The translations under genes and the position numbers were made by a program. 10,267 nt of DNA from an uncultured Victivallales bacterium (GTDB lineage Bacteria; Verrucomicrobiota; Kiritimatiellia; UBA8416; SLMC01). The notes below the pieces were generated by a model. That model ran no database searches. It was not told the origin of the DNA and saw nothing but the letters and a program-made list of their open reading frames with translations. Below are positions 1-10,267 of the stretch, piece by piece. The first letter of the stretch is position 1, and every line of letters starts with the position of its first letter. Location of the stretch: positions 1-10,267 of the forward strand of contig CAZYAW010000164.1 of the NCBI GenBank assembly GCA_964646045.1. Direction: 5' to 3'.

Positions 1-214
1 CCGAGGCCGCGTACTGCGGCAATATGGTCTTCAGCGCGCGGCGGCCGCCCAATGTCGTGTGCTCGGCCTCGTACACCTCGCCCATGCCGCCGCGGCCCAG
101 GGGGCGTATGATCTTGTACTGGCCCAGGGTTTGACCGGCAGACAGCGTGTAGCCGCCGGACTGGGCTGCGCCGGTTATAGTTCGGTCGGTGCCTATGGAG
201 TTTTCGGTTGTCAT
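1..214 (-). CDS. Ser/Thr protein kinase, N-terminal part (gene continues beyond the left window edge)
   Basis: The minus-strand translation from the ATG at 214..212 reads [71 protein letters not shown]. This contains a Hanks-kinase glycine loop ([10 protein letters not shown]) and the invariant subdomain-II lysine (ALK). There is an in-frame stop upstream at 250..248 and no stop before the window edge. It is not in the ORF table because it is open-ended. There is no clear SD. Confidence 0.7.
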
Positions 215-350
215 GGGTTTGGAAAGTATAGGGTTTTTGCGGGGTTGTCAGGTGAAAACTGAACAGTTGCGGATTTTGGCGCCGCCCGCCGGTCTGCTCC
301 GGCTGCGATCAGCGCCGGGACAGGCCGGGCGGGATCGCCGCCCTGTCCTG

Positions 351-1202
351 TCAGCCTCTGGCCGCGATGCGTTCACAGGCCCAGTAGCTGTAGCCGCCGC
401 AAATCGACAGCGCCGCCAGGAGTTTGACCGCCCCGAACAAGCCGTCGAGATCGAAGCTCCAGAACGCCATGGCCAAAGCCAGCCCCAGAACGGTATGGCC
501 GAACACCAGCAGAAAGCTCGCCAAGTTGCTTTTTTTGCCGACGGCCTTGTGCGTGGCGGCGGCCGACACCCAGGGCAGCAGCGCCACGAACGCCAGCCAG
601 AGAACCAGTCGCGTCCAGCCGCTCATGCCGCGCATGCGCATGGCGGCCCTTGCGGCGGGACCGGGTCGCCAGTCGCGCTCGAAGGTTCCGGACACCAGCG
701 TCTCGCCGGCCCGGGCATCGAAGACATGCAGCCGCAGCGCGGCGGTCGCGCCGACATCCGTCTGTTCCACCTTGAGGGTTTCGCCGGCCACAACGGCGTC
801 GATGCCCACGCGGCGGCCCGCATTCACGACTTCGTCGAGGCCGGTGGCGTTGAGCACGCTGCGGGCGACATCGGCCAGAAACCGCTGGATCGGCGACTCG
901 TCGAGCGCCGTCCAGTTCTTGCGGCTCGCGATGAACTCGCGCGTTATCTGCGTGACCTGGTCTCCGGAGTCCCCGACGAAGCGCGCCACTCCGAAACGCG
1001 TGGGCCGCTCGCCGATGCGCTCGACGACAGGGGCGAAGGCCGTCTCGACGGCGGCCAGCACGGCCCTGCGCTCGCTTTCGGAATAGACCCGGGGTCGCGG
1101 CCGGCTGAACACCCAGACCTGCCAGACCACGAACGCCACCAGTAAAACAAAAAATATACGGGCGGGCAGCAGCAGCGCTCTGGTCACGGACGGCAGTCTC
1201 AT
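351..1202 (-). CDS. Integral membrane protein of unknown function (N-terminal TM helix plus a C-terminal cluster of 2-3 TM helices)
   Basis: 283-aa ORF with hydrophobic segments (IFFVLLVAFVVWQVWVF; LVLWLAFVALLPWV; LLVFGHTVLGLALAMAFW; LLAALSICGGY). An SD-like AAAGGA lies ~9 nt upstream of the ATG at 1202 on the minus strand. The opposite-strand ORF 189..1145 is R/A/G/P low-complexity. It sits upstream of, and co-oriented with, the kinase at 214..1. Confidence 0.6.
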   Translation of the reverse strand: MRLPSVTRALLLPARIFFVLLVAFVVWQVWVFSRPRPRVYSESERRAVLAAVETAFAPVVERIGERPTRFGVARFVGDSGDQVTQITREFIASRKNWTALDESPIQRFLADVARSVLNATGLDEVVNAGRRVGIDAVVAGETLKVEQTDVGATAALRLHVFDARAGETLVSGTFERDWRPGPAARAAMRMRGMSGWTRLVLWLAFVALLPWVSAAATHKAVGKKSNLASFLLVFGHTVLGLALAMAFWSFDLDGLFGAVKLLAALSICGGYSYWACERIAARG

Positions 1203-1346
1203 GGCGAATTATCCTTTCCGGTGAAGAATTTCAATTGATTTTGCCGGCCTCGCGCCGGCTCTACGACATCCGGCCGATTCCGTTGTCTCGAACCATGTAT
1301 AAGCAAAAGCAAAAATAAGTAAACAGAAAAAAACAAAAAATAATTG

Positions 1347-1375
1347 TTGACACTTCTGATGGCCAGACGTAACTT
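1347..1375 (+). promoter_or_regulatory. Candidate sigma70-type promoter (-35 TTGACA, 17-nt spacer, -10 TAACTT) inside an AT-rich divergent intergenic island
   Basis: TTGACA at 1347-1352, then 17 nt, then TAACTT at 1370-1375. The surrounding 1203-1345 region is strikingly AT-rich for this DNA (aaaaataagtaaacagaaaaaaacaaaaaataatt). It lies between the divergently oriented genes starting at 1202 (minus) and 1443 (plus). Confidence 0.35.
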
Positions 1376-1442
1376 GCTGTTTCTTTGGCGGGAATACCGC
1401 CGCGCGGCGGATATCGGAGGCCGACAGGCCGGGAACCATGCT

Positions 1443-1787
1443 ATGAGCGCGAACAGCGACAAAAAGGAATTTCTTTCGGTGGACGAGGTCGCCAGGCTTC
1501 TCGGGGTGACGTATCATCTCATTTACCGCCTGGTGCGCGAGGGCGAGATACCGGCCTCGCGCATCGGCAAGGTGTACCGGGTGCGCCAGGCCGATCTCGA
1601 CGCGTATCTGGAGCGGTCCAAAACCGACGCGCCGCAGGGAACCGACTGCGCGGTGTGCGGCAAGACGTATGCCAGCCGGTTTTCGATCAAGGGCCAGTGC
1701 GAGGAATGCGAGGCTCCGATTTGCACGGACTGCTGGACGCGCAAGGGCGTACGGCGCTGTCCGGAACATGCGAAGCGGCAGGGATGA
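1443..1787 (+). CDS. Excisionase/MerR-type helix-turn-helix DNA-binding protein with a C-terminal Cys-rich (zinc-ribbon-like) domain; probable regulator, first gene of the cluster
   Basis: MSANSDKKEFLSVDEVARLLGVTYHLIYRLVREGEIPASRIGKVYRVRQADLDAYL matches the excisionase-family HTH pattern. It is followed by CAVCGK...CEECEAPICTDCW...RCPEH (Cys pairs). I prefer the ATG at 1443: the in-frame Met at 1344 falls inside the predicted promoter, so the listed ORF 1344..1787 is trimmed. The start is uncertain because GGAGG sits 22 nt upstream. Confidence 0.65.
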   Translation: MSANSDKKEFLSVDEVARLLGVTYHLIYRLVREGEIPASRIGKVYRVRQADLDAYLERSKTDAPQGTDCAVCGKTYASRFSIKGQCEECEAPICTDCWTRKGVRRCPEHAKRQG

Positions 1788-1807
1788 GGATGCGGGGACG
1801 ATAAACG

Positions 1808-1828
1808 TTGCCGGCGGGCTGCCGGCAA
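1808..1828. other. 8-bp perfect hairpin (ttgccggc / gggct / gccggcaa) in the 58-nt spacer between gene 1 and gene 2
   Basis: Inverted repeat read directly. No U-run follows it. It ends 5 nt before the GGAGG SD of the next gene. Confidence 0.25.
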
Positions 1829-1844
1829 GAGACGGAGGTGAGCG

Positions 1845-3509
1845 ATGGGAATTTTTTCCGACAAGTGTCAGGCCCTGATCGACGGGGAAAGCGGACGCGC
1901 GCTGACGGGGGAGGCTTTGGCCAAAGCCCGGCAGGAGCGCAAGTGGCCGCGCTGCGGAAACCGGGTGCCCAGGGCGGCGCGGTTCTGCAACGCCTGCGGA
2001 CAGGCGGCGCCGGGCGGCTGGTGGCAGTGTCCGGCCTGCGGCAAGTGGGTGGGCAACGATTCCCGGTTCTGCGCACACTGCGATACGCCGCTGCAGCCCG
2101 AGTCCCGGGTCGACATGGCGGGCGGGGTCTGGCGCAAGGGGCCGGAGACGCTGGCGCAGCGCTTCGAGGCGGGCGATGTGAAGCGGCTGCTGAAGAACGG
2201 GCTGCAGGTTCAGCCGGGCACGGTCGCGGTTTTGCTCGAGGCCGGCAAGGTCGGCGACACGCTGGGCCCGGGCCGTCACGAGCCCGACGGACTGGCGCGC
2301 AAGATCAACTGGTTCGGCAATCCGCCGCCGCGCTCGGTGGTGCTGGTGGAGGCCGGCGACATTGTGCTGCCGGTGCGCGTCGAGGAACTGCGTTCGGCCG
2401 AGCAGATTCCGCTGGAGTTCTACGGCGAGATCGTCCTGCGGTTCGAGCCCAGGCTGGCCGGGGATTTTCTGGAGAATCTGTTCAAGGGCGCCGAGGCGCT
2501 GTCCTACGCCGAACTCGGCGAACGGCTGGGCGGGGAGATCCGCCACGCCGTGGACGAGATGTGCGTGGCCTCGACGATCGACGACCTCGTGCGCGACCCC
2601 AAACGGAGACTGCGGCTCGAGGACGTGATCGAAGGCTCGCTCAAACCGGGGCTCGAACGCTGCGGTTTCAGCCTGGTTCGCGTTTCGCAGGCCGAGTTTC
2701 TGGGCGACGCCTACGACGCGCTGGCCGAAAAAAGCGGCGAGGTCGAGCAGGTCCGCCGCCGCATCGAACTCGATCAGCGGCTGGCCGAGATGCTCGACAA
2801 GGAGAAGATGGGCCGGTTCAAGAGCGAGGCCGAGATCGAGGAATACGCCGCCCAGCTCGCGCAGGAGCGCGGCGTGTCCGAACTGCACCGCGGACGCGAG
2901 ATCGAAATCCTGAAAACGGGCTGGCGGCGGCAGGACCAGCTCGACGAGGCGCGGCGCCTGATGACGCGGGAACGCGACGAGACCGGCCACAAGATCGGCA
3001 TCGCCTCCGAATGGGACGGCTACAACCGCGACAAGCTGGTCGCCGACGCCGACGCCAAGGCCCGGGCCCGCGACAAGGAATTCGAACAGGAGGCCCGCGA
3101 GACCGACAAGGCCCTGGAGTGGCGCAAGGAAAAGAACCGCATCCGTCAGCAGGATCTGGCCGCCACGGCCGACACTCTCAAGGGCCGCAGCCTGCAGGAC
3201 CTGATGGCTCTGATCGACGATCCCGACAAGCGCAGGGACCTGCTGGCGTTCCGGGAGCAGGAGATCAAGAGCGGCATGAGCGAGAGGCAGATACTGGCCA
3301 TGGCCGTCGAGAAGAGTCCGGCGGCCGCCGAGGCGCTGGCCCGCATGGCCGGCAGCGAGCAAGTCAATGCGGAGGCCCGTGTCGAGGAATCCCGCAAGCT
3401 GATGAAAGACATGCTCGACCGCGACGAACGCATCCTCAAGACGGCGCTGGAACCCGGCGTGGAGGCCGCCAGGAACAAAACCGGCAGCACCCACCAGATT
3501 ATCAAGTAG
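1845..3509 (+). CDS. Double zinc-ribbon + SPFH/Band-7 (Band_7_1-type) domain protein with a long C-terminal coiled-coil (flotillin-like)
   Basis: GGAGG sits 6 nt upstream of the ATG. The N-terminus has CPRCGN..FCNACG and CPACGK..FCAHCD zinc ribbons. The segment GDVKRLLKNGLQVQPGTVAVLLEAGKVGDTLGPGRHEPDGL...NWFGNPP...EFYGEIVLRF fits the SPFH Band_7_1 / COG4260 'virion-core-like' pattern. The C-terminal ~250 aa are E/R/K/A/D-rich heptad-like. The antisense 871-aa ORF is low-complexity. Confidence 0.8.
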   Translation: MGIFSDKCQALIDGESGRALTGEALAKARQERKWPRCGNRVPRAARFCNACGQAAPGGWWQCPACGKWVGNDSRFCAHCDTPLQPESRVDMAGGVWRKGPETLAQRFEAGDVKRLLKNGLQVQPGTVAVLLEAGKVGDTLGPGRHEPDGLARKINWFGNPPPRSVVLVEAGDIVLPVRVEELRSAEQIPLEFYGEIVLRFEPRLAGDFLENLFKGAEALSYAELGERLGGEIRHAVDEMCVASTIDDLVRDPKRRLRLEDVIEGSLKPGLERCGFSLVRVSQAEFLGDAYDALAEKSGEVEQVRRRIELDQRLAEMLDKEKMGRFKSEAEIEEYAAQLAQERGVSELHRGREIEILKTGWRRQDQLDEARRLMTRERDETGHKIGIASEWDGYNRDKLVADADAKARARDKEFEQEARETDKALEWRKEKNRIRQQDLAATADTLKGRSLQDLMALIDDPDKRRDLLAFREQEIKSGMSERQILAMAVEKSPAAAEALARMAGSEQVNAEARVEESRKLMKDMLDRDERILKTALEPGVEAARNKTGSTHQIIK

Positions 3510-3528
3510 AAGAGCGGAGACCGTTTCG

Positions 3529-5118
3529 ATGCCGGAAAAGACCAGATGTCCGAACTGCGACAGGCTGACGGAGCCGGGCCGCTTCTGCGCTCGGTGCGGC
3601 GGCGACCTGGGCGCCCCGGCCAGGACCGCGGCGCCGTCCGCCTTGCCGGTTGCGCCCCGCGACACGGTCCCGAAGCGCGAGATCGCGCCGGTCGAGTCCC
3701 CGGCCGATTCGCGGGACGCGAGCCGGCCGCGACCCTGGAGCCGCGCGACGGGCGGTTCCGACATTGCGCGTGCCGCCCAAGCCACGACGCCGGAAGCCCC
3801 GGCCGAACGGACGCGCCCCGCCACGGTAGTCTCCTACTGCAACGATCTCAAGATCGAATGCGATATGGCCCAGATTTTCGTGGCCGACATCAACATGCCG
3901 TTTTTTTTCAGGATCACGCCTCTGGCGGACGGCGTCGAGAAGCCGGTCGTCGAGGTGCGCTGCGACGCCGACAACTGGAGCCATCTCAAGGAGCTGACCA
4001 GAAAGCTGCGCAAGAACCGGTCCGTCGAGCACAGCGTCAACTACCGCCCGGGCCGCGAATCCGGGGGCGTCGTATCCTTCGACATCTACATCGCCTACCT
4101 CAAGGACGGCAAAAGACAGGCTTTCGAGGCCGACGTCCGGCACAAGGTCTATCCGAGCAACAGCAACGCGCGCCAGGTAGTCGACAACATCATTGTCAAC
4201 ATCAGCACCGAGATCAAGACCGGTCACGCCGCCGACATCAATCTGCGCAACGGGCTCGACGAACTCGCCTCCATTCGCGACCGGACCGGAGCCGACGACA
4301 CCCTGCAAAGCCTGATCGACCGCATTTCCTCGATGCCTCGGGCTCTGTCCATACTGCAAATGTATCCCTCCGACTGGCGTTCCGACGAACAACCCGGCGG
4401 GCATCGCGACGCCTGCACGCCCGAGGACGCCCGGCTCGACCGCCTCACGCTGCGGACCGGGGATACGCGGGTGCATCTCTACGCCGTCGAAAGTCTCGCC
4501 GCCGGCAAGCGCCGCGACAACGACCTGGTTACGCGCAACTTCAACCGGGCCGGCAGGGCGACAAGGGAAATCAACGACAAGATCAGCCGCTACCACGCCC
4601 GCTTCGAGCTGCACGACGACCGCTGTTTCGTCGAGGACGGCGGGTTCGACCCGGAGAAGGGAGCCCGCCGTGAATCGGCCAATGGCACCTGGCTTGGCGG
4701 GCGCCGTCTGCCGCCGCTGGGTTCGGCCGAGCTGCCGCCCGGAACCTCGACGCCGGTGTCGCTGGCCGGCGAGGACGTCGGCGCCTTCGCGGCCTTCGCC
4801 TTGAAAGCCACTCCCGCGCTCTGCGCCGCGCCGATCCCGCGCGCCTGCGGCATGTCCGACAACTGCCGACCCGGCACGCTGGCCGCCGTATTTCTGGAAA
4901 GACAGGGCGGCGACGCTCCCGAATCCTACGTCATGCTGGTGCGCTGCGCCGAGCTTGGCCGGCTCTCGCCGGATCTGGCGGGCCTGAAGGTCTGGCGACG
5001 CGGCGACGGAGTCAGGTTCTCGGCCGGAAACCGAAACGACTGGCTGATTCCGGGCGACAGCTTCGGGCTGAACGGCAAAACCGTGTTCGTGGAGCGATTC
5101 CGTCAGTGGGGACTGTAA
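3529..5118 (+). CDS. Zinc-ribbon + Pro-rich linker + domain of unknown function + FHA (forkhead-associated, phospho-Thr-binding) domain protein
   Basis: The N-terminus has CPNCDRLTEPGRFCARCG. The FHA signature is RNFNRAGRATREINDKISRYHARFEL...ESANGTWLGGRRL (G-R...S..H...NGT). The start is 20 nt after the previous stop and is preceded by AGCGGAGA. Residues ~100-330 have no family I recognise. Confidence 0.8.
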   Translation: MPEKTRCPNCDRLTEPGRFCARCGGDLGAPARTAAPSALPVAPRDTVPKREIAPVESPADSRDASRPRPWSRATGGSDIARAAQATTPEAPAERTRPATVVSYCNDLKIECDMAQIFVADINMPFFFRITPLADGVEKPVVEVRCDADNWSHLKELTRKLRKNRSVEHSVNYRPGRESGGVVSFDIYIAYLKDGKRQAFEADVRHKVYPSNSNARQVVDNIIVNISTEIKTGHAADINLRNGLDELASIRDRTGADDTLQSLIDRISSMPRALSILQMYPSDWRSDEQPGGHRDACTPEDARLDRLTLRTGDTRVHLYAVESLAAGKRRDNDLVTRNFNRAGRATREINDKISRYHARFELHDDRCFVEDGGFDPEKGARRESANGTWLGGRRLPPLGSAELPPGTSTPVSLAGEDVGAFAAFALKATPALCAAPIPRACGMSDNCRPGTLAAVFLERQGGDAPESYVMLVRCAELGRLSPDLAGLKVWRRGDGVRFSAGNRNDWLIPGDSFGLNGKTVFVERFRQWGL

Positions 5119-5169
5119 ACGAAAGCGCAAGATCTGGGAAAACAGGGCATACGGAAAGGGGAACCCGAC

Positions 5170-5946
5170 ATGAGAACGAAGAAACAGGGACAATGGCTGT
5201 GGGCGCGGGCGGGCATGGTGGCGGCGGCGATGCTGACGCAGGGCTGCGGGACCGCGGCGGTGATGCGACCGGCCGACCGGACCGCCGATTCCGAGTCCGT
5301 CGCCGCGACAACGGCCGAGGAGCACGCCAGGCTGCTGAACCTGCGCATCGACGCCCGGGGTTCGGGCGCGCACGACAAGACCGTGGCCGGGCTCGTCGGG
5401 CGAAGCGTCTCCGGCAGTCTCCTGCGGCAGGGCTACCGCATGGAGGACGGAACCGCCGACGTGCTGGTCAGCCTGACGGCCGAGGCCAAGGTCTTCGACA
5501 AGAGCGGCAACTACTACCGGCACGACGGCACGCTCGACGCCGAAGTCAGCCTGCCGCCGGCCCGGCGCAAGATCGGCCGACAGAGCTTCACCGCCCGCGG
5601 CGACCGCAAGCTGGGCGAAACCGAAAGCCTTCGGGACCTCGCCGCCAGGCTTGCCGAACCCGCCGAAGAATGGGTTCGGACCCTGGCCGGGCCGCTGGGC
5701 TCCGAACTGGCCGTCAACGATGTCGTCGTCCGGCGCTCCAGGCTGAACGCCGTGAAAACCCCGGATTCCCGCTATGCCGAGCGTTTCGTCAAGCGCGTAT
5801 CCGAACTCGACGGCGTTATCTCCTGCGAACTGGTCGGCCAGGACCGCGTCGCCCATGGCATGACTTTCAGAATCGTTTACTACAGGCAGAAGTTCCCCGC
5901 CGGCATGCTCAACCGGCTGGCCAACATGAGCGGGCTCGAGCTGTAG
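5170..5946 (+). CDS. Putative lipoprotein of unknown function
   Basis: The signal peptide MRTKKQGQWLWARAGMVAAAMLTQGC ends in a lipobox-like LTQGC. The SD AAAGGGGA sits ~8 nt upstream of the start. Confidence 0.6.
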   Translation: MRTKKQGQWLWARAGMVAAAMLTQGCGTAAVMRPADRTADSESVAATTAEEHARLLNLRIDARGSGAHDKTVAGLVGRSVSGSLLRQGYRMEDGTADVLVSLTAEAKVFDKSGNYYRHDGTLDAEVSLPPARRKIGRQSFTARGDRKLGETESLRDLAARLAEPAEEWVRTLAGPLGSELAVNDVVVRRSRLNAVKTPDSRYAERFVKRVSELDGVISCELVGQDRVAHGMTFRIVYYRQKFPAGMLNRLANMSGLEL

Positions 5947-6028
5947 CCGCGGAGAAGGGGCGCGAAGGGCGGGACAAGGGAGACGCGATACGCAACCGGG
6001 AAAATATCAACACGGAAGGAAAACTACC

Positions 6029-7117
6029 ATGAAAAGACGGGAAACGATCAATATCGGGTGGATGGCGGCCGCGGCGGCTCTGGTTTTCATGCAGCCCGCG
6101 CGGGGATCGGCCGACGAACTGCGCCAGGCCGTCCGCATGGCGGTCGAGGACGCGCGCGACAGCCTCGCCAAAAGCGGACTGCCGCGCGACCGGGGCCTGG
6201 CCGTTCTGCCTTTGACCGGCGACCGGGACCGCTATGTCGAGGGCCTGCTCAAAACCGCGGTCACCGACGCCGGGCTCAAGCATGTCGAGGGCGGCCGCTC
6301 GCCGTTCTGGGACGAAATACTCCGTGAAGTCGAGTGGGCCGAGCGCAAGGAGGACATGCTGGCCCCCGAGACCGCCGCAAAGTTCGGCAAACTGGAAGGC
6401 GTGCGCATGCTGCTCTACGGCACGCTGCGTTCCGCGCGCCGCGAGACCCACCGGGTCTTCGTCGAGATCGAGCTGCACGTCAGCGACATCGAGACCGGCC
6501 GCCACCTCTGGGGAACCGCGGTCAGCCGCCGGTTCTACCTGCCCGGCGCCGTGCAGGGCATTGTCGATCTCGACACCGACGCCCGCAACGCCATCGACCG
6601 CACCATCGAGAAGGGGCTGGAGTCCCTGAAGGGCAGCGACAAGCTCGGCGAAATTCGGACTGTGGCGATGGTTCCGCTGGCCGGCGACATCGACAGCTAC
6701 GTCGGCGGGCGCGTGCAGGACATGGTCTCGCGGACTCGGCTGAACCCCAAGAACCTCGACCTGCCGACTCTCGGCGAGGCCCGTCAGCTCATGCGCGACC
6801 GGCCCGAACAGGCCGACGCCGTGCTCTACGGCGCATTGCGCGACCTCTCGCGCCGTCTGGTGCGCGAGGAAACCATGCGTACCACGCACGAGGTCTCGGC
6901 GGAAATCCAGCTTGTCATCCAGTCCGCCTCTACAGGGGAAGTGCTCTGGAGCGACACGCTGCGTCATGTCGAGGAGGTCACGCCCGCGAAACCCGGCGAG
7001 GAGGCCGTGGTCGAGCTGACCCGCAGGTATCCGCGTCTCTGGCTGTATCTCGGCGGCGGCCTCCTGGGGCTGATCGTTCTGAGCATAATCGTCAAGAAGG
7101 CTACGCGGGTAAGGTAG
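6029..7117 (+). CDS. Secreted protein with two tandem CsgG/LpoB/TolB-N-like domains and a C-terminal TM anchor
   Basis: It has a signal peptide (MKRRETINIGWMAAAAALVFMQPARGSA). There is an internal duplication: LAVLPLTGDRDRYVEGLL...LLYGTL...VFVEIELHVSDIETGRHLWG versus VAMVPLAGDIDSYVGGRV...VLYGAL...VSAEIQLVIQSASTGEVLWS. The C-terminus is hydrophobic (LWLYLGGGLLGLIVLSIIV KKATRVR). The SD GGAAGGAAAA is present. Confidence 0.7.
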   Translation: MKRRETINIGWMAAAAALVFMQPARGSADELRQAVRMAVEDARDSLAKSGLPRDRGLAVLPLTGDRDRYVEGLLKTAVTDAGLKHVEGGRSPFWDEILREVEWAERKEDMLAPETAAKFGKLEGVRMLLYGTLRSARRETHRVFVEIELHVSDIETGRHLWGTAVSRRFYLPGAVQGIVDLDTDARNAIDRTIEKGLESLKGSDKLGEIRTVAMVPLAGDIDSYVGGRVQDMVSRTRLNPKNLDLPTLGEARQLMRDRPEQADAVLYGALRDLSRRLVREETMRTTHEVSAEIQLVIQSASTGEVLWSDTLRHVEEVTPAKPGEEAVVELTRRYPRLWLYLGGGLLGLIVLSIIVKKATRVR

Positions 7118-7337
7118 GCGGGGGGCCGCTTGCCGATCTTGTTTCGGCGGATGCCGGCGTCGCGGAGCGCCCCGTCCGGGACGTTCGCCGCGATTTTGCG
7201 CGACTACCGGCCCCGGCGGGGCTCCGCGTCTTTGCCCCGCCCGACAATGCGGACGGGGACGGGACAACCGGGCTGGGCTTGCGTGTTCCGCTCCGCCGAC
7301 AGCCCCATGCCGCCGACGCTCCGGGAATCCGCTTCTC

Positions 7338-7351
7338 AGCGCGCAAGCGCT
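7338..7351. other. Small GC hairpin with a GCAA (GNRA) loop abutting the distal end of the TR
   Basis: agcgc-gcaa-gcgct read directly. It lies immediately beyond the last TR/VR-homologous base on the TR-sense strand. Confidence 0.25.
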
Positions 7352-7495
7352 CAGCGAGACAACACCAAACGAAACCCGTTGTTGTTGTTACGATTCGACG
7401 GATTGTTGTCGTTGCGGTTCGAACAACGCAGGTTGTCCTGATTGTTGTTGTTCCAGGACGCGCCGCGCCACGCGCCGAACGACCCGCCGAACGTT
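7350..7495 (-). repeat. DGR template repeat (TR), non-coding, 146 bp
   Basis: It is collinear with 9007-9152 at an offset of +1657. The sense (minus) strand reads ...TCC TGG AAC AAC AAC AAT CAG GAC AAC CTG CGT TGT TCG AAC CGC AAC GAC AAC AAT CCG TCG AAT CGT AAC AAC AAC AAC GGG TTT.... All 25 mismatches to the VR lie at TR adenines. It is not within any plausible ORF. It begins 8 nt after the RT stop codon. Confidence 0.85.
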
Positions 7496-7502
7496 CGCCC
7501 GG

Positions 7503-8555
7503 TCATCCAAAACCATGTGCTCTATACTGCCGATAAAGCCCTTTTGTGTTACCGTAGTCCGCAAACGCCTTCCAGCCCTCCGCCGACTTGATGACATCAG
7601 GCATTTCCGTTCTGCCGTCACGCACATCGGCCATGCGGCGACGCATGCGCCGCTCGAACCGGCGTTTGCACTCGCCGATAAGTCGCGGGGAACGGGCGGG
7701 GAAAAAGCGAAATCCGAGAAACGGAACACCGGTTCGCGTTGGAATGATTCGTGTCTTGACCGGATGCAGCGACAGCCTGTCCTCGACCAGCAGTTGCGCA
7801 ATAGCATCCCGGCATGTCCGCAGTGTCGACTTGTCGTCCGCCCACAGAATGAAATCGTCCGTATAGCGCACATAGCCCGGCACGCGCAGTTCTTCCCGGA
7901 TGAAGTGGTCCATGCGATCGAGATACAGGTTCGCCCACAACTGGCTGGTCAGGTTGCCGATCGGCAATCCGCGCTTACGACCTGTCGGCGCAAGCGGATC
8001 GTCCCCGGGGAACCATGCGGGAGCCGTTTCCCCGGATATGCTGGAGCCTATGATGCGGCGGCAAAGCTCAAGGGTGGCACGACAACGTATTGCCCGCGAC
8101 ACCTTGTCGAACAGAATCTCGTGATCGACAGAATCGAAGTATTTGGAGATGTCGCACTTCAGCGCGTAACGGTAACGGTTGGTGAACATCCGGCAACGCT
8201 CGCGGCCCGCCAGCGTTCCCTTGCCCTTGCGACAGGAGTACGAGTCGTGCACGAAACGGCGCTCGATCAATGGCCCGATCACGTTGCACAGCGCATGATG
8301 CACGATCCTGTCGCGGTACGGAGCGGCGCTGATCGTGCGGGTTTTAGGATCGTGTATCCGGAACTTTCGGTAGGCAGAAGGCGTCCAGCGTTCCGCCGTA
8401 AGTTCCTCGTGAATCTGCCGCACAAAACGTTCCCGGTGCAGTTCGAAACGCTCGACATCCTCCTTGCGCGTCTTGCGTTTGCGGGCCTTGGCAGCAGCCG
8501 CGTAAAGATTCTCAAGCGCGCAAATCCCGGCATACAGATTGCCCCGGCTTTTCAC
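7503..8555 (-). CDS. DGR reverse transcriptase
   Basis: RT motifs are present: PKTRTISAAPYRDRIVHHAL; DISKYFDSVDHEIL; GLPIGNLTSQLWANLYL (the DGR-specific IGxxxSQ); YVRYTDDFILW (YxDD); LSLHPVKTRI; FLGFRF. The start is proposed at the GTG at 8555..8553, which overlaps the TGA of the upstream Avd-like gene as GTGA, with AGGGAAAG 8 nt upstream. The open frame itself extends to 8681. Confidence 0.85.
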   Translation of the reverse strand: MKSRGNLYAGICALENLYAAAAKARKRKTRKEDVERFELHRERFVRQIHEELTAERWTPSAYRKFRIHDPKTRTISAAPYRDRIVHHALCNVIGPLIERRFVHDSYSCRKGKGTLAGRERCRMFTNRYRYALKCDISKYFDSVDHEILFDKVSRAIRCRATLELCRRIIGSSISGETAPAWFPGDDPLAPTGRKRGLPIGNLTSQLWANLYLDRMDHFIREELRVPGYVRYTDDFILWADDKSTLRTCRDAIAQLLVEDRLSLHPVKTRIIPTRTGVPFLGFRFFPARSPRLIGECKRRFERRMRRRMADVRDGRTEMPDVIKSAEGWKAFADYGNTKGLYRQYRAHGFG

Positions 8556-8911
8556 GGCGATGCTTTCCCTGACTGCTGCTTGAGCCAGCCGCCGACCATG
8601 CGGCCCGCCTCGTCCAGCTTGCCGTGCACAAAGTCCAGTTGCCTCAAGTTGATCCAACTGCGCTTCTGCACCAGCCGCCACAGAACGCGCAGTTCTTCCA
8701 GCTTCAGATTGATCTCGTCCAGCATCGCGGTCTTTTCCCGCGTGTGGATCGCGCGAACGACAAGCTGAAGCACATCCAGCGTCATCGCGTCAATCCGCTG
8801 CCCGAACGTGAAGCGTTGCGACTTCGGGATGGCCGCCGTGCGGTCGAAAGTCCAGCCGCAGACCTCCTCCCATACGGTGTAAATCGGCGGGCGTTTCGTA
8901 TCCGGTTTCAT
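8552..8911 (-). CDS. avd: Avd-like accessory variability determinant (four-helix-bundle family)
   Basis: 119 aa, positioned between the VR-bearing target and the RT as in characterised DGRs. Its sequence (IYTVWEEV...FPK-like ...RIDAMTLDVLQLVVRAIHT...LEELRVLWRLV...LDEAGRMVGGWLKQ) fits the Avd / 23S-IVS four-helix-bundle pattern as I remember it. The SD is weak. Confidence 0.6.
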   Translation of the reverse strand: MKPDTKRPPIYTVWEEVCGWTFDRTAAIPKSQRFTFGQRIDAMTLDVLQLVVRAIHTREKTAMLDEINLKLEELRVLWRLVQKRSWINLRQLDFVHGKLDEAGRMVGGWLKQQSGKASP

Positions 8912-8936
8912 ATGGAAAATTCAAATTTCAAACTCG

Positions 8937-8973
8937 ACCCGCTCCGCGGGTACGGAAGGCGCCATTCGGCGCC
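8937..8973. other. Two adjacent GC hairpins in the 96-bp gap between the VR stop and avd
   Basis: Both were read directly: acccgc-tcc-gcgggt at 8937-8951 and ggcgcc-attc-ggcgcc at 8958-8973. They sit 35-70 nt downstream of the VR on the sense strand, where DGRs carry a homing-associated stem-loop. Neither is followed by a U-run. Confidence 0.3.
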
Positions 8974-9006
8974 AAAGAAACAAAGGTCAAAGGGTAAATT
9001 TAAGCC

Positions 9007-9152
9007 CTCAGCGAGACAACACCAAACGAAACCCGCGGCGGTCGACACGAAACGACGGAACGTAGGCGCCGCGGTACGAACAACGCAGGTAGCCCTGAGT
9101 GCGGTAGGACCAGGACGCGCCGCGCCACGCGCCGAACGACCCGCCGAACGCT
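9007..9152 (-). repeat. DGR variable repeat (VR) covering the last ~49 codons plus stop of the kinase-FGE target gene
   Basis: It is the counterpart of the TR. It encodes ...GQAFGGSFGAWRGASWSYRTQGYLRCSYRGAYVPSFRVDRRGFRLVLSR*. The TR would instead encode ...GRTFGGSFGAWRGASWNNNNQDNLRCSNRNDNNPSNRNNNNGFRLVLSR*. The 3'-terminal 29 nt on the sense strand are identical to the TR (IMH-like invariant end). Confidence 0.85.
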
Positions 9153-10267
9153 TGTCCTGTGCTGTCTCTGGCGCAGGCCTCCCATACGTTGCCGCCAACG
9201 CCATGAAGACCCCAAGGATTGGCCCAGAGCTTGTCGACGGGCGCCGTTACGGGAAACCCGTCATTGTAGCCGGATATCTTGTCCCATGTTCCAGCACCTT
9301 CCTGTCCGTGATAATTCCCGGCCCGCCCGCTCGGCGGCGGCCAATTGTTGCCCCACGGATATTCCCTACCATCTCCGCACTGCGCGTATGTCATCCATTC
9401 GTCCTCGCTGGGCAGCCGATACCTTGCTCCGCCCAGCGCCGCCTTCTCGCGCTCGGTCAGCCACGCGGCATACGCCTTGGCATCATCAAAATTCACATAC
9501 ACCACCGGCTGGCTGTCACGGTTGAGACTGTGATTCTTATAGCTCTTCGAGTCATGACGCGGTTCCTTTTTCCGGTACTCCCCGTTCGTCACTTCGAATT
9601 TACCCACCCACATCTTCAATGCGTCAATCCACACGAATTTCATACCGGTCGCGGGAGATGTCCAGTTCTGGCCGGCTACCGGCGCACCACGTTGCGACGC
9701 CGCCGCATCCCTCCGAGGCGCAACAGCAGCCGGGGTACTGGCAGGGGGAGGCGTTGGACGGGAACTGACGGCCGGGGCCGAAGGTCTTGCAGCAACACCT
9801 TGGGTCTGCTTCGGCTTGCTGTCACGGCTTATCAAGACCCCGAAGCCGATGACCGCCGCGATAACAACCAGCAGCGCAAAACCGCGTCCGCCCCGCCGTT
9901 TCTTTGCTTTCGGTACGGCAGGCGGCTCTGCGGGCTGACTTCGCGCGGCAAGCTCCTCTCGCCGCCTGGTTTCCTGTGAGCGTTGCTCAGCCTCAGCCTG
10001 CCGCCGGGCGGCCTCCGCCTTTTGCCGCTGCTCGGCGGCCTTTGCACGGCGTTCCTGCTCCAGACGCGCCCGCTCGACTTCCGCCCGCCGCGCCTCTTCC
10101 TCACGCAACCTTTTCGACTCCTTGGCAGCGGCCCCAATCTCACCCCCGTACAGTCCACCCAACGACGCGGCCACTGCCGCCATGTCCGCAGGCCGATCTG
10201 CAGGGTCTTCTTCAAGACAGGAGTCAATCAGGTCGTCCCATGCATCATCAAGCCCAGCAACCAGCTT
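9008..10267 (-). CDS. Ser/Thr protein kinase (C-lobe end; 5' part outside window) - charged coiled-coil linker - single TM helix - extracytoplasmic FGE-sulfatase / C-type-lectin-fold domain; DGR target (variable) protein
   Basis: The frame is open to the window edge. The translation upstream of the first Met reads KLVAGLDDAWDDLIDSCLEEDPADRPADMAAV, a kinase subdomain-XI-like motif. The TM helix is GFALLVVIAAVIGFGVLI. FGE-domain motifs include FEVTNGEY, YRLPSEDEW, YPWGNNW, GNVWEA, GGSFGAWRGASW and RRGFRLV. Confidence 0.85.
   Translation of the reverse strand, partial: KLVAGLDDAWDDLIDSCLEEDPADRPADMAAVAASLGGLYGGEIGAAAKESKRLREEEARRAEVERARLEQERRAKAAEQRQKAEAARRQAEAEQRSQETRRREELAARSQPAEPPAVPKAKKRRGGRGFALLVVIAAVIGFGVLISRDSKPKQTQGVAARPSAPAVSSRPTPPPASTPAAVAPRRDAAASQRGAPVAGQNWTSPATGMKFVWIDALKMWVGKFEVTNGEYRKKEPRHDSKSYKNHSLNRDSQPVVYVNFDDAKAYAAWLTEREKAALGGARYRLPSEDEWMTYAQCGDGREYPWGNNWPPPSGRAGNYHGQEGAGTWDKISGYNDGFPVTAPVDKLWANPWGLHGVGGNVWEACARDSTGQAFGGSFGAWRGASWSYRTQGYLRCSYRGAYVPSFRVDRRGFRLVLSR

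Follow-up and report, generated by a model that had tools for sequence, protein, structure and literature searches.

The stretch of DNA analysed here (the window) comprises 10,267 nucleotides, positions 1 to 10,267 of the forward strand of contig CAZYAW010000164.1 (GenBank assembly GCA_964646045.1), from an uncultured Victivallales bacterium. It carries a diversity-generating retroelement (DGR) whose target gene encodes part of a Hanks-type Ser/Thr kinase, a predicted transmembrane (TM) segment and a hypervariable domain of the C-type-lectin (CLec) fold. The DGR cassette occupies the minus strand, along which the target, avd, the reverse transcriptase (RT) and the template repeat (TR) follow one another. 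The target gene (9008..10267) has its stop at 9008-9010 and an open frame from base 10267, where it runs off the right window edge. The window thus holds its 3' 1260 nt, corresponding to residues 282-700 of a 700-amino-acid protein plus the stop codon, and this part is 100% identical, outside the variable region (VR), to L002:1194-3296 and other contigs. In translation, the fragment reads ...KLVAGLDDAWDDLIDSCLEEDPADRPADMAAV..., an E/R/A/K-rich part, the hydrophobic segment GFALLVVIAAVIGFGVLIS, a P/A/S-rich part and an FGE-sulfatase domain. The accessory variability determinant gene avd (8552..8911, minus strand; 119 amino acids) matches PF22296 (bAvd; E = 3e-16) and NF033474 (DivGenRetAVD) at 85.9 bits, where the cutoff is 80 bits. 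The RT gene (7503..8555, minus strand; 350 amino acids) is called in other contigs of the same locus from a GTG start that overlaps the avd stop, and its product matches RVT_1 (E = 6e-22) and phrog_1423 (E = 9e-107). RTs of the DGR clade carry [LIV]GxxxSQ where group II intron RTs carry QGxxxSP, and the translation contains LPIGNLTSQ as well as YTDD, in agreement with the DGR form.

TR is 144 nt long (7350..7493, minus strand), begins 10 nt past the RT stop, and is invariant in every contig that carries it. VR, also 144 nt (9007..9150, minus strand), comprises the last 47 codons and the stop of the target, which places it, as expected of a DGR, at the 3' end of the target open reading frame (ORF) and within a CLec-type fold. 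All 24 mismatches between the two repeats fall at TR adenines, each at codon position 1 or 2; with adenine at 32 of the 144 TR bases, the chance of such a pattern is ~1e-16. The 17 variable codons appear in TR as 14 AAY, two GAC and one CAG. They allow for ~1.9e18 VR peptides, and the AAY design excludes stop codons, which no variant can create. A 28-nt adenine-poor segment at the 3' end, a candidate for the invariant IMH-like segment of DGRs, is the same in TR and VR, and the first difference in the flanks, G versus C, comes directly after CTGAG. A GC hairpin with a 4-nt loop (GGCGCC-GAAT-GGCGCC; 8958..8973, minus strand) lies 36 nt downstream of the VR stop, and the DNA fold of 8912-9012 scores z = -3.3 relative to shuffled sequences. 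This hairpin is a candidate for the DGR target-recognition hairpin or for a terminator. The window carries a complete, textbook DGR comprising Avd, RT and the TR/VR pair.

The GC content of the cassette (59-62% in window 7500-9500) is lower than that of the flanking genes (66-68%), which is compatible with horizontal acquisition. Scans for promoters and terminators around the cassette gave background-level results. TR also lies within a spurious 51-amino-acid ORF (7351-7506, minus strand) that is listed as a gene, with a weak FGE-sulfatase match, in the gene calls of the Joint Genome Institute (JGI). This ORF is an annotation artefact that stems from the homology of TR and VR.

An earlier note on the window had proposed that the target ORF is fused in frame to a Hanks-type kinase, followed by a coiled-coil-like linker, one TM helix and an FGE-sulfatase/CLec tip that is the variable region. 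In the window fragment alone, the kinase match is weak (NCBIfam PknB model, residues 3-153, E = 8e-5) and Pfam Pkinase is not called, and we therefore examined contigs that encode an Avd protein identical to that of the window. There are twelve such same-locus contigs, including the window, and they settle the question. Six of them contain an uninterrupted ORF of 700 codons in which residues 282-700 equal the window fragment outside the VR (100%), and the cluster of this protein (P0001) has 8 member sequences. The in-frame fusion holds in these six contigs, with no upstream stop or frameshift, though a further contig (L096, discussed below) is frameshifted and the window's own copy is probably, but not certainly, intact.

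In the full-length protein, Pfam Pkinase matches residues 33-310 (E = 1.7e-37), the kinase motifs GKGGMGEV40, AVK62, HRDLKPAN164, DFG188 and SPE242 are all present, and the best sequence matches of this domain in the PDB are the bacterial receptor kinases StkP, PknA and PknB (E = 1e-26 to 5e-32). The window itself encodes only the end of the catalytic domain (C-lobe, residues 282-310; 10181..10267, minus strand), as located by the Pkinase match to the full protein and the weak PknB match to the fragment; its last ~30 residues read ...DLIDSCLEEDPADRPADMAAV.... By these motifs, the target in the six contigs has a complete Hanks Ser/Thr kinase domain, which is predicted to be active. From DFG to SPE, the activation segment spans ~54 residues (188-242; L002:1755-1919), an unusual length, and reads ...WLRSVVDVSMRQSMSMGGDRT...STTGSILGT; in the alignment consensus, this segment is conserved across the kinase family in the Planctomycetes-Verrucomicrobia-Chlamydiae (PVC) superphylum.

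The kinase domain is followed by an E/R/K/A-rich stretch (residues 310-389; 9944..10183, minus strand) composed of 23 A, 17 E, 17 R, 7 K and 7 Q among other residues. An AlphaFold2 (AF2) model of the full-length protein consists of the kinase, one uninterrupted helix of 80 residues over this stretch (pLDDT 90-97), a low-confidence TM segment and tether, and the lectin domain. Hydrophobic residues at heptad positions are few in the helix, presumably a cytoplasmic stalk, which may therefore be a spacer of ~12 nm in the form of an ER/K single alpha-helix rather than a coiled coil. The earlier description of the linker is thus upheld as to its composition and helical character, whereas its coiled-coil nature is one of two equally compatible forms in the AF2 model.

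A hydropathy scan of the 700-residue protein found exactly one membrane-type segment, GFALLVVIAAVIGFGVLIS (residues 410-428; 9827..9883, minus strand), which lies between the kinase and the lectin domain, has a mean Kyte-Doolittle hydropathy of 2.67 over 19 residues, and is flanked by KAKKRRGGR before and SRDSKPK after. This agrees with the single TM helix of the earlier note. The same scan gave a hydrophilic N terminus and no signal peptide there. The closest homologues likewise keep one TM segment after the kinase, as do the DGR targets of two Victivallales metagenome-assembled genomes (MAGs; L008 and L009), mostly with more lysine and arginine on the kinase side. The segment is followed by a Pro/Ala/Ser-rich tether of 54 residues (429-482; 9665..9826, minus strand), which is predicted to be disordered on the basis of its composition and of pLDDT values below 50 for residues 422-473. 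Since the kinase requires cytoplasmic ATP and the protein has one TM segment, the lectin domain should be extracytoplasmic, an orientation that agrees with a weak positive-inside bias at the segment. PVC bacteria are diderm. Because the nearest relatives belong to this group, a hypervariable surface "outside the cell", as the note had put it, is better read as a periplasmic or extracytoplasmic one, with the kinase inside, as proposed.

Residues 501-697 (9020..9610, minus strand) match the FGE-sulfatase family PF03781 (E = 3e-26 to 4e-27), a domain of the C-type-lectin fold. The AF2 model of the C-terminal 230 residues has a pLDDT of 88.8, and Foldseek matches of the C-terminal domain include FGE (5nyy; E = 1e-11), PvdO and the DGR variable protein TvpA (2y3c; E = 6e-10), so the proposed FGE/CLec tip stands, with VR at its C terminus. 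HMMER alignments to FGE structures end short of the segment with the catalytic cysteines. In FGE, the catalytic, copper-binding cysteine pair is near the C terminus, at a position that presumably corresponds to the hypervariable stretch of the target. The equivalent stretch here is VR (GASW-x9-C-S-x-R...), which has one invariant cysteine only. This is incompatible with a conserved two-cysteine site and suggests that the C-terminal domain functions in binding rather than as an FGE enzyme. By fold homology to TvpA and Mtd, the one basis for this placement, the VR residues would lie on the ligand-binding face of the CLec domain.

The twelve same-locus contigs come from different metagenome samples and contain eight VR alleles. 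Each in-register allele differs from TR at 20-24 positions, all of them TR adenines, and variation across these alleles reaches 31 of the 32 TR adenines. In a base-by-base comparison of the window with L001-L006, there is no other substitution from window position 10267 to about 7176. Given eight VR alleles, an invariant TR and otherwise identical flanks, mutagenic retrohoming is ongoing in natural populations. The repertoire of receptor-kinase specificities that the note had envisaged is borne out to the extent that these alleles stand on a background that is invariant where it was compared base by base. The region between TR and the neighbouring LpoB-like gene (7125-7175) is polymorphic among contigs, and in L001 and L003-L005 the junction at ~7126 has an insertion of ~191 nt, in which part of the flanking sequence is duplicated. 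In L101, a deletion of 14-15 nt at the 3' end of VR removes part of the invariant 3' segment. One target (L099) has residues 1-48 that are those of the N terminus of a second kinase of the locus, and is a chimera or recombinant at the G-loop. A look-up with the RT protein returned only contigs of 1.3-1.6 kb that end beside repeats and add no new VR information.

Proteins that combine Pkinase and FGE-sulfatase domains number in the thousands in the protein collection, and the named ones near the query come from Kiritimatiellae, Verrucomicrobia and Opitutales. In a scan of species-representative genomes the best matches were to Victivallales, Kiritimatiellales/Pontiellaceae and Verrucomicrobiota MAGs; the same species was not found in that scan, and the best full-length identity was 44%. 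Several relatives are linked to DGRs. L008 and L009 each have a DGR with an HRDC-type accessory gene and two kinase-TM-FGE targets (two VRs) that flank the RT. L088 also has a DGR with an HRDC accessory gene, along with three VRs and kinase-FGE targets that lack a TM segment. The DGR-linked kinase-FGE target of L087 is accompanied by an Avd and an RT that are 77% and 69% identical to those of the window, and L089 contains a further DGR-linked kinase-FGE target. Kinase-fused DGR targets are thereby extended from cyanobacteria to the PVC superphylum.

For most of the remaining kinase-FGE paralogues, no RT lies within 8 kb, such that a minority of the sampled genes is linked to a DGR. Two further contigs (L085:7009-7365 and L086:4833-5189) have, after a kinase gene, an ORF of 118 amino acids of which only 62 residues match Avd (73%). 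The kinase gene in these contigs encodes a kinase-TM-FGE homologue (P0010; 51% identity), and neither an RT nor a TR was found nearby. From their sequences, these loci look like decayed DGRs. The patchy linkage of DGRs to members of a large paralogous family is consistent with capture and loss.

The other end of the window is occupied by a second, paralogous Hanks kinase and by a set of genes that recur elsewhere; a second kinase and an FHA protein at this locus had both been mentioned in the earlier note, and both are there. Of the second kinase gene, only the N-terminal 71 codons (1..214, minus strand) are contained in the window, beyond whose left edge it extends; the translation starts MTTENSIG. 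A nearly identical N terminus is found in P0046, a protein of 697 amino acids with Pkinase, GYF_2 and FGE-sulfatase domains and no TM segment. Between the second kinase and a helix-turn-helix (HTH) gene lies a gene for a four-TM protein of 283 amino acids (351-1202, minus strand) that has no Pfam match, and whose homologues (37-42% identity) adjoin kinase genes in two other PVC genomes (L007:6966-7799 and L031:3693-4454). Five plus-strand genes follow and converge on the DGR cassette: an HTH_17 and Zn-finger protein (1344-1787), a double-zinc-ribbon (DZR) and SPFH protein (1845-3509), a Zn-ribbon and FHA protein (3529..5118), a probable lipoprotein (5170-5946), and an LpoB-like protein that carries a signal peptide as well as an anchor at its C terminus (6029-7117). 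The FHA domain (PF00498, E = 1e-7) reads GR...SRYHA...NGT in translation, corresponding to the canonical phosphothreonine-binding residues GR...SxxH...NG.

The same gene set is present, in the same order, after two DGR-diversified kinase-FGE genes in L088 (7236-14885), where the identities to the window's proteins are 58% (HTH), 50% (SPFH), 26% (FHA protein, full length), 31% (lipoprotein) and 56% (LpoB-like). Parts of the set also occur beside kinase genes in L021 (5296-8918), L009 (207-2647), L011, L026, L039, L014 and L030. This gene order suggests that the HTH_17, DZR-SPFH, FHA, lipoprotein and LpoB-like genes constitute a conserved functional module, which in the window would be flanked by one cytoplasmic and one transmembrane kinase-lectin paralogue. 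The FHA protein, whose gene is syntenic with kinase genes in L088, L021, L009, L014 and other contigs, is a candidate downstream partner of the kinase. We rejected the HTH_17 "excisionase" as a marker of a prophage, as it belongs to the conserved module (L088 and L021). Readings of the locus as a prophage or as a known defence system were likewise dropped, since the PADLOC and PHROGs matches of the kinase and RT are generic and no neighbour resembles a phage protein or a known defence protein.

Taken as a whole, the locus is probably best explained as a chromosomal DGR that targets a receptor Ser/Thr kinase of the single-pass type and diversifies its lectin ectodomain in the periplasm; the kinase may be wired to an FHA/SPFH/envelope module. 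The RT copies TR RNA with adenine-specific errors, and the resulting cDNA replaces VR, thereby rewriting 17 codons on the presumed ligand-binding face of the C-terminal, FGE-like CLec domain. The lectin domain would sit in the periplasm on its tether of ~54 Pro/Ala/Ser-rich residues, and the kinase in the cytoplasm on the 80-residue E/R/K helix, so that each VR allele might confer a different periplasmic binding specificity. Binding of a ligand could then switch the activity of the kinase, most likely because the receptors dimerize or cluster in the manner of PknB-type receptor kinases. Phosphothreonine marks made in this way might be read by the Zn-ribbon-FHA protein, together with the co-conserved SPFH, lipoprotein and LpoB-like envelope proteins.

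Several observations weigh against this explanation. The positive-inside bias at the TM segment is weak (six lysines and arginines on the kinase side versus four on the other), AF2 confidence is low at the segment, and several homologues (P0019, P0053 and others) lack it, indicating that the family also exists in a cytoplasmic form; P0019, though without a TM segment, is itself diversified by a DGR. Only the proximity of their genes links the kinase to the FHA protein, and the FHA operon of the window runs convergently to the DGR cassette and is not co-transcribed with it. In addition, some alleles are disrupted. In L096, the one contig with the same VR allele as the window, 7 inserted nucleotides (ATGATAC) put the kinase out of frame at GTYEYMSPE, and in L099 and L100, insertions of +2 and +3 nt shift the frame of VR such that the ORF reads through into avd (721 amino acids). 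The indels in L099, L100 and L101 may be real RT errors or assembly artefacts at a hypervariable site.

The same architecture could also belong to an immune antigen sensor, in which the periplasmic lectin detects components of phages or other invaders and the kinase triggers a defensive or abortive response. SPFH and FHA are domain types met in conflict systems, and both are encoded next to the kinase here. The kinase domain also scores high against the defence-kinase models PD-T4-6 and mad6 of PADLOC, and published work has proposed such a role for fusions of a DGR-diversified CLec domain with a kinase or NTPase module (PMC10907252; PMC7159879). However, such PADLOC matches are expected of any Hanks kinase, and the neighbouring genes match no PADLOC model other than a generic HTH one. 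A Pfam scan of the window found no effector domain (nuclease, TIR, caspase or pore former), and the LpoB-like and lipoprotein genes of the module point instead to envelope physiology. We regard a role in immunity as an unlikely but serious alternative, for which nothing in the window speaks in particular.

Somewhat less probable again is that the target gene in the window's genome is a pseudogene, in which the 7-nt insertion parts a kinase of 256 amino acids from a TM and lectin protein of 460 amino acids. This possibility arises from L096 (sample MLSed), which is identical to the window over 7176-10267, including all 24 positions of the VR allele, and in which the target is called as these two ORFs. 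The insertion lies at nt 720 of the gene (L096:~1015-1021), about 120 nt beyond window base 10267; the uninterrupted sequence at this site is GGAACCTACGAGTATATGAGTCCC. Within 7130-7175, however, 11 intergenic positions distinguish L096 from the window, which means that it is not the window's own contig. Its insertion represents either a genuine pseudogene allele or a mistake of assembly; in an assembly of that age, an isolated insertion of 7 nt may be the latter. Moreover, the 700-codon ORF is intact in six other contigs, and cluster P0001 contains eight sequences. It is very improbable that the hydrophobic segment does not span the membrane, or that the lectin is cytoplasmic, in which case CLec would serve a soluble kinase by autoinhibition or by selecting its substrates. 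Most cyanobacterial kinase-CLec DGR targets are predicted to be cytosolic (PMC7517822) and homologues without a TM segment exist, including the DGR targets of L088, but the 19-residue segment with its hydropathy and basic flanks is that of a textbook TM helix, has counterparts at this position in the closest homologues as well as in the L008 and L009 DGR targets, and is followed by a disordered Pro/Ala/Ser tether typical of periplasmic stalks.

For the most part, DGRs are viewed as tools that alter the partners to which a phage or a cell surface adheres. If the target is the receptor kinase that we favour, hypermutation would instead act on the domain through which a transmembrane signalling enzyme receives its input, altering what is sensed across the inner membrane, and each lineage could try a different sensor out of about 1e18 possibilities. 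The eight natural alleles in public metagenomes, along with a candidate output consisting of the FHA protein and the envelope module, make the question of what is sensed and controlled a testable one. A more tentative proposal, which we consider possible but somewhat doubtful, is that PVC bacteria (Kiritimatiellota, Lentisphaerota and Verrucomicrobiota) share a conserved envelope-signalling system comprising a receptor kinase whose periplasmic lectin ectodomain is diversified by a retroelement in living populations, an FHA protein as its dedicated reader, SPFH as a scaffold, and LpoB-like or lipoprotein components. Such a system would give prokaryotes an equivalent of a diversified repertoire of receptor kinases, and would differ both from the cytosolic kinase-CLec type of cyanobacteria and from STAND or MoxR conflict systems.

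Kinases have been found among DGR targets before, mainly in cyanobacteria, as the earlier note had stated correctly. The targets classified by Wu et al. 2018 (PMC5758913) include one kinase composition, class b12. Vallota-Eastman et al. 2020 (PMC7517822) described cyanobacterial kinase-CLec targets as mostly cytosolic, and proposed that CLec acts in autoinhibition or substrate selection. Dore et al. 2024 (PMC10907252) listed Pkinase among DGR target domains and predicted some CLec domains to be periplasmic by virtue of TM segments, and a 2024 survey of MAGs reported "Pkn1/PknD" DGR targets with VR in a CLec domain. Searches of open-access text found none that connects DGRs to Kiritimatiellota or to "receptor kinase", which, with this scope, is no proof of novelty. 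An atlas of bacterial Ser/Thr kinases (bSTK; bioRxiv 10.1101/2025.01.12.632604) lists a C-terminal TM region and an FGE-sulfatase domain, each for the family "Proteo1". The target shares both features with that family, whereas the atlas does not mention DGRs and draws no connection to them.

With the Treponema denticola protein TvpA and the Bordetella phage protein Mtd, the target shares a CLec/FGE-like fold, a VR that forms its C-terminal part and an AAY-rich TR. However, TvpA is a lipoprotein and Mtd forms the tip of a phage tail fibre, and neither has a signalling domain, whereas the lectin domain here would be the ectodomain of a kinase. The antigen sensors of multicellular bacteria (PMC10907252) also have DGR-diversified CLec domains fused to signalling modules, but they are built mainly around STAND NTPases or ternary MoxR-vWA systems, which are absent here; the neighbours are instead HTH, SPFH, FHA and LpoB-like genes. 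PknB, StkP and PrkC are receptor kinases in which the kinase is inside and is connected by one TM segment to an extracytoplasmic ligand-binding domain. The target probably has the same arrangement, its best kinase-domain matches are to proteins of this class, and an FHA protein and envelope proteins are likewise encoded nearby. Unlike these kinases, its sensor is an FGE/CLec domain hypermutated by a retroelement rather than a set of PASTA repeats, and the window contains no PP2C phosphatase.

The closest parallel is provided by the cyanobacterial kinase-CLec targets. Both groups have an N-terminal Hanks kinase, an FGE-type CLec domain, VR at the extreme C terminus and adenine mutagenesis from TR, and in both, paralogous kinase-CLec genes occur in one genome, some diversified and some not. 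They differ in that the target here has a TM segment and a Pro/Ala/Ser tether between its domains, whereas the cyanobacterial supplement lists "Kinase, CLec" without a TM segment, and also in the PVC host and the 80-residue E/R/K helix. In most of the cyanobacterial proteins, kinase and CLec are predicted to share the cytosol. With a TM segment between the two domains, the CLec domain would not contact cytoplasmic substrates, and the cytosolic mechanisms proposed for cyanobacteria would not apply. As a class, kinase-CLec DGR targets are already published, and the locus extends this class rather than revealing a new principle; what sets it apart within the class is the predicted transmembrane arrangement, together with the PVC host lineage and the syntenic FHA/SPFH/LpoB-like module.

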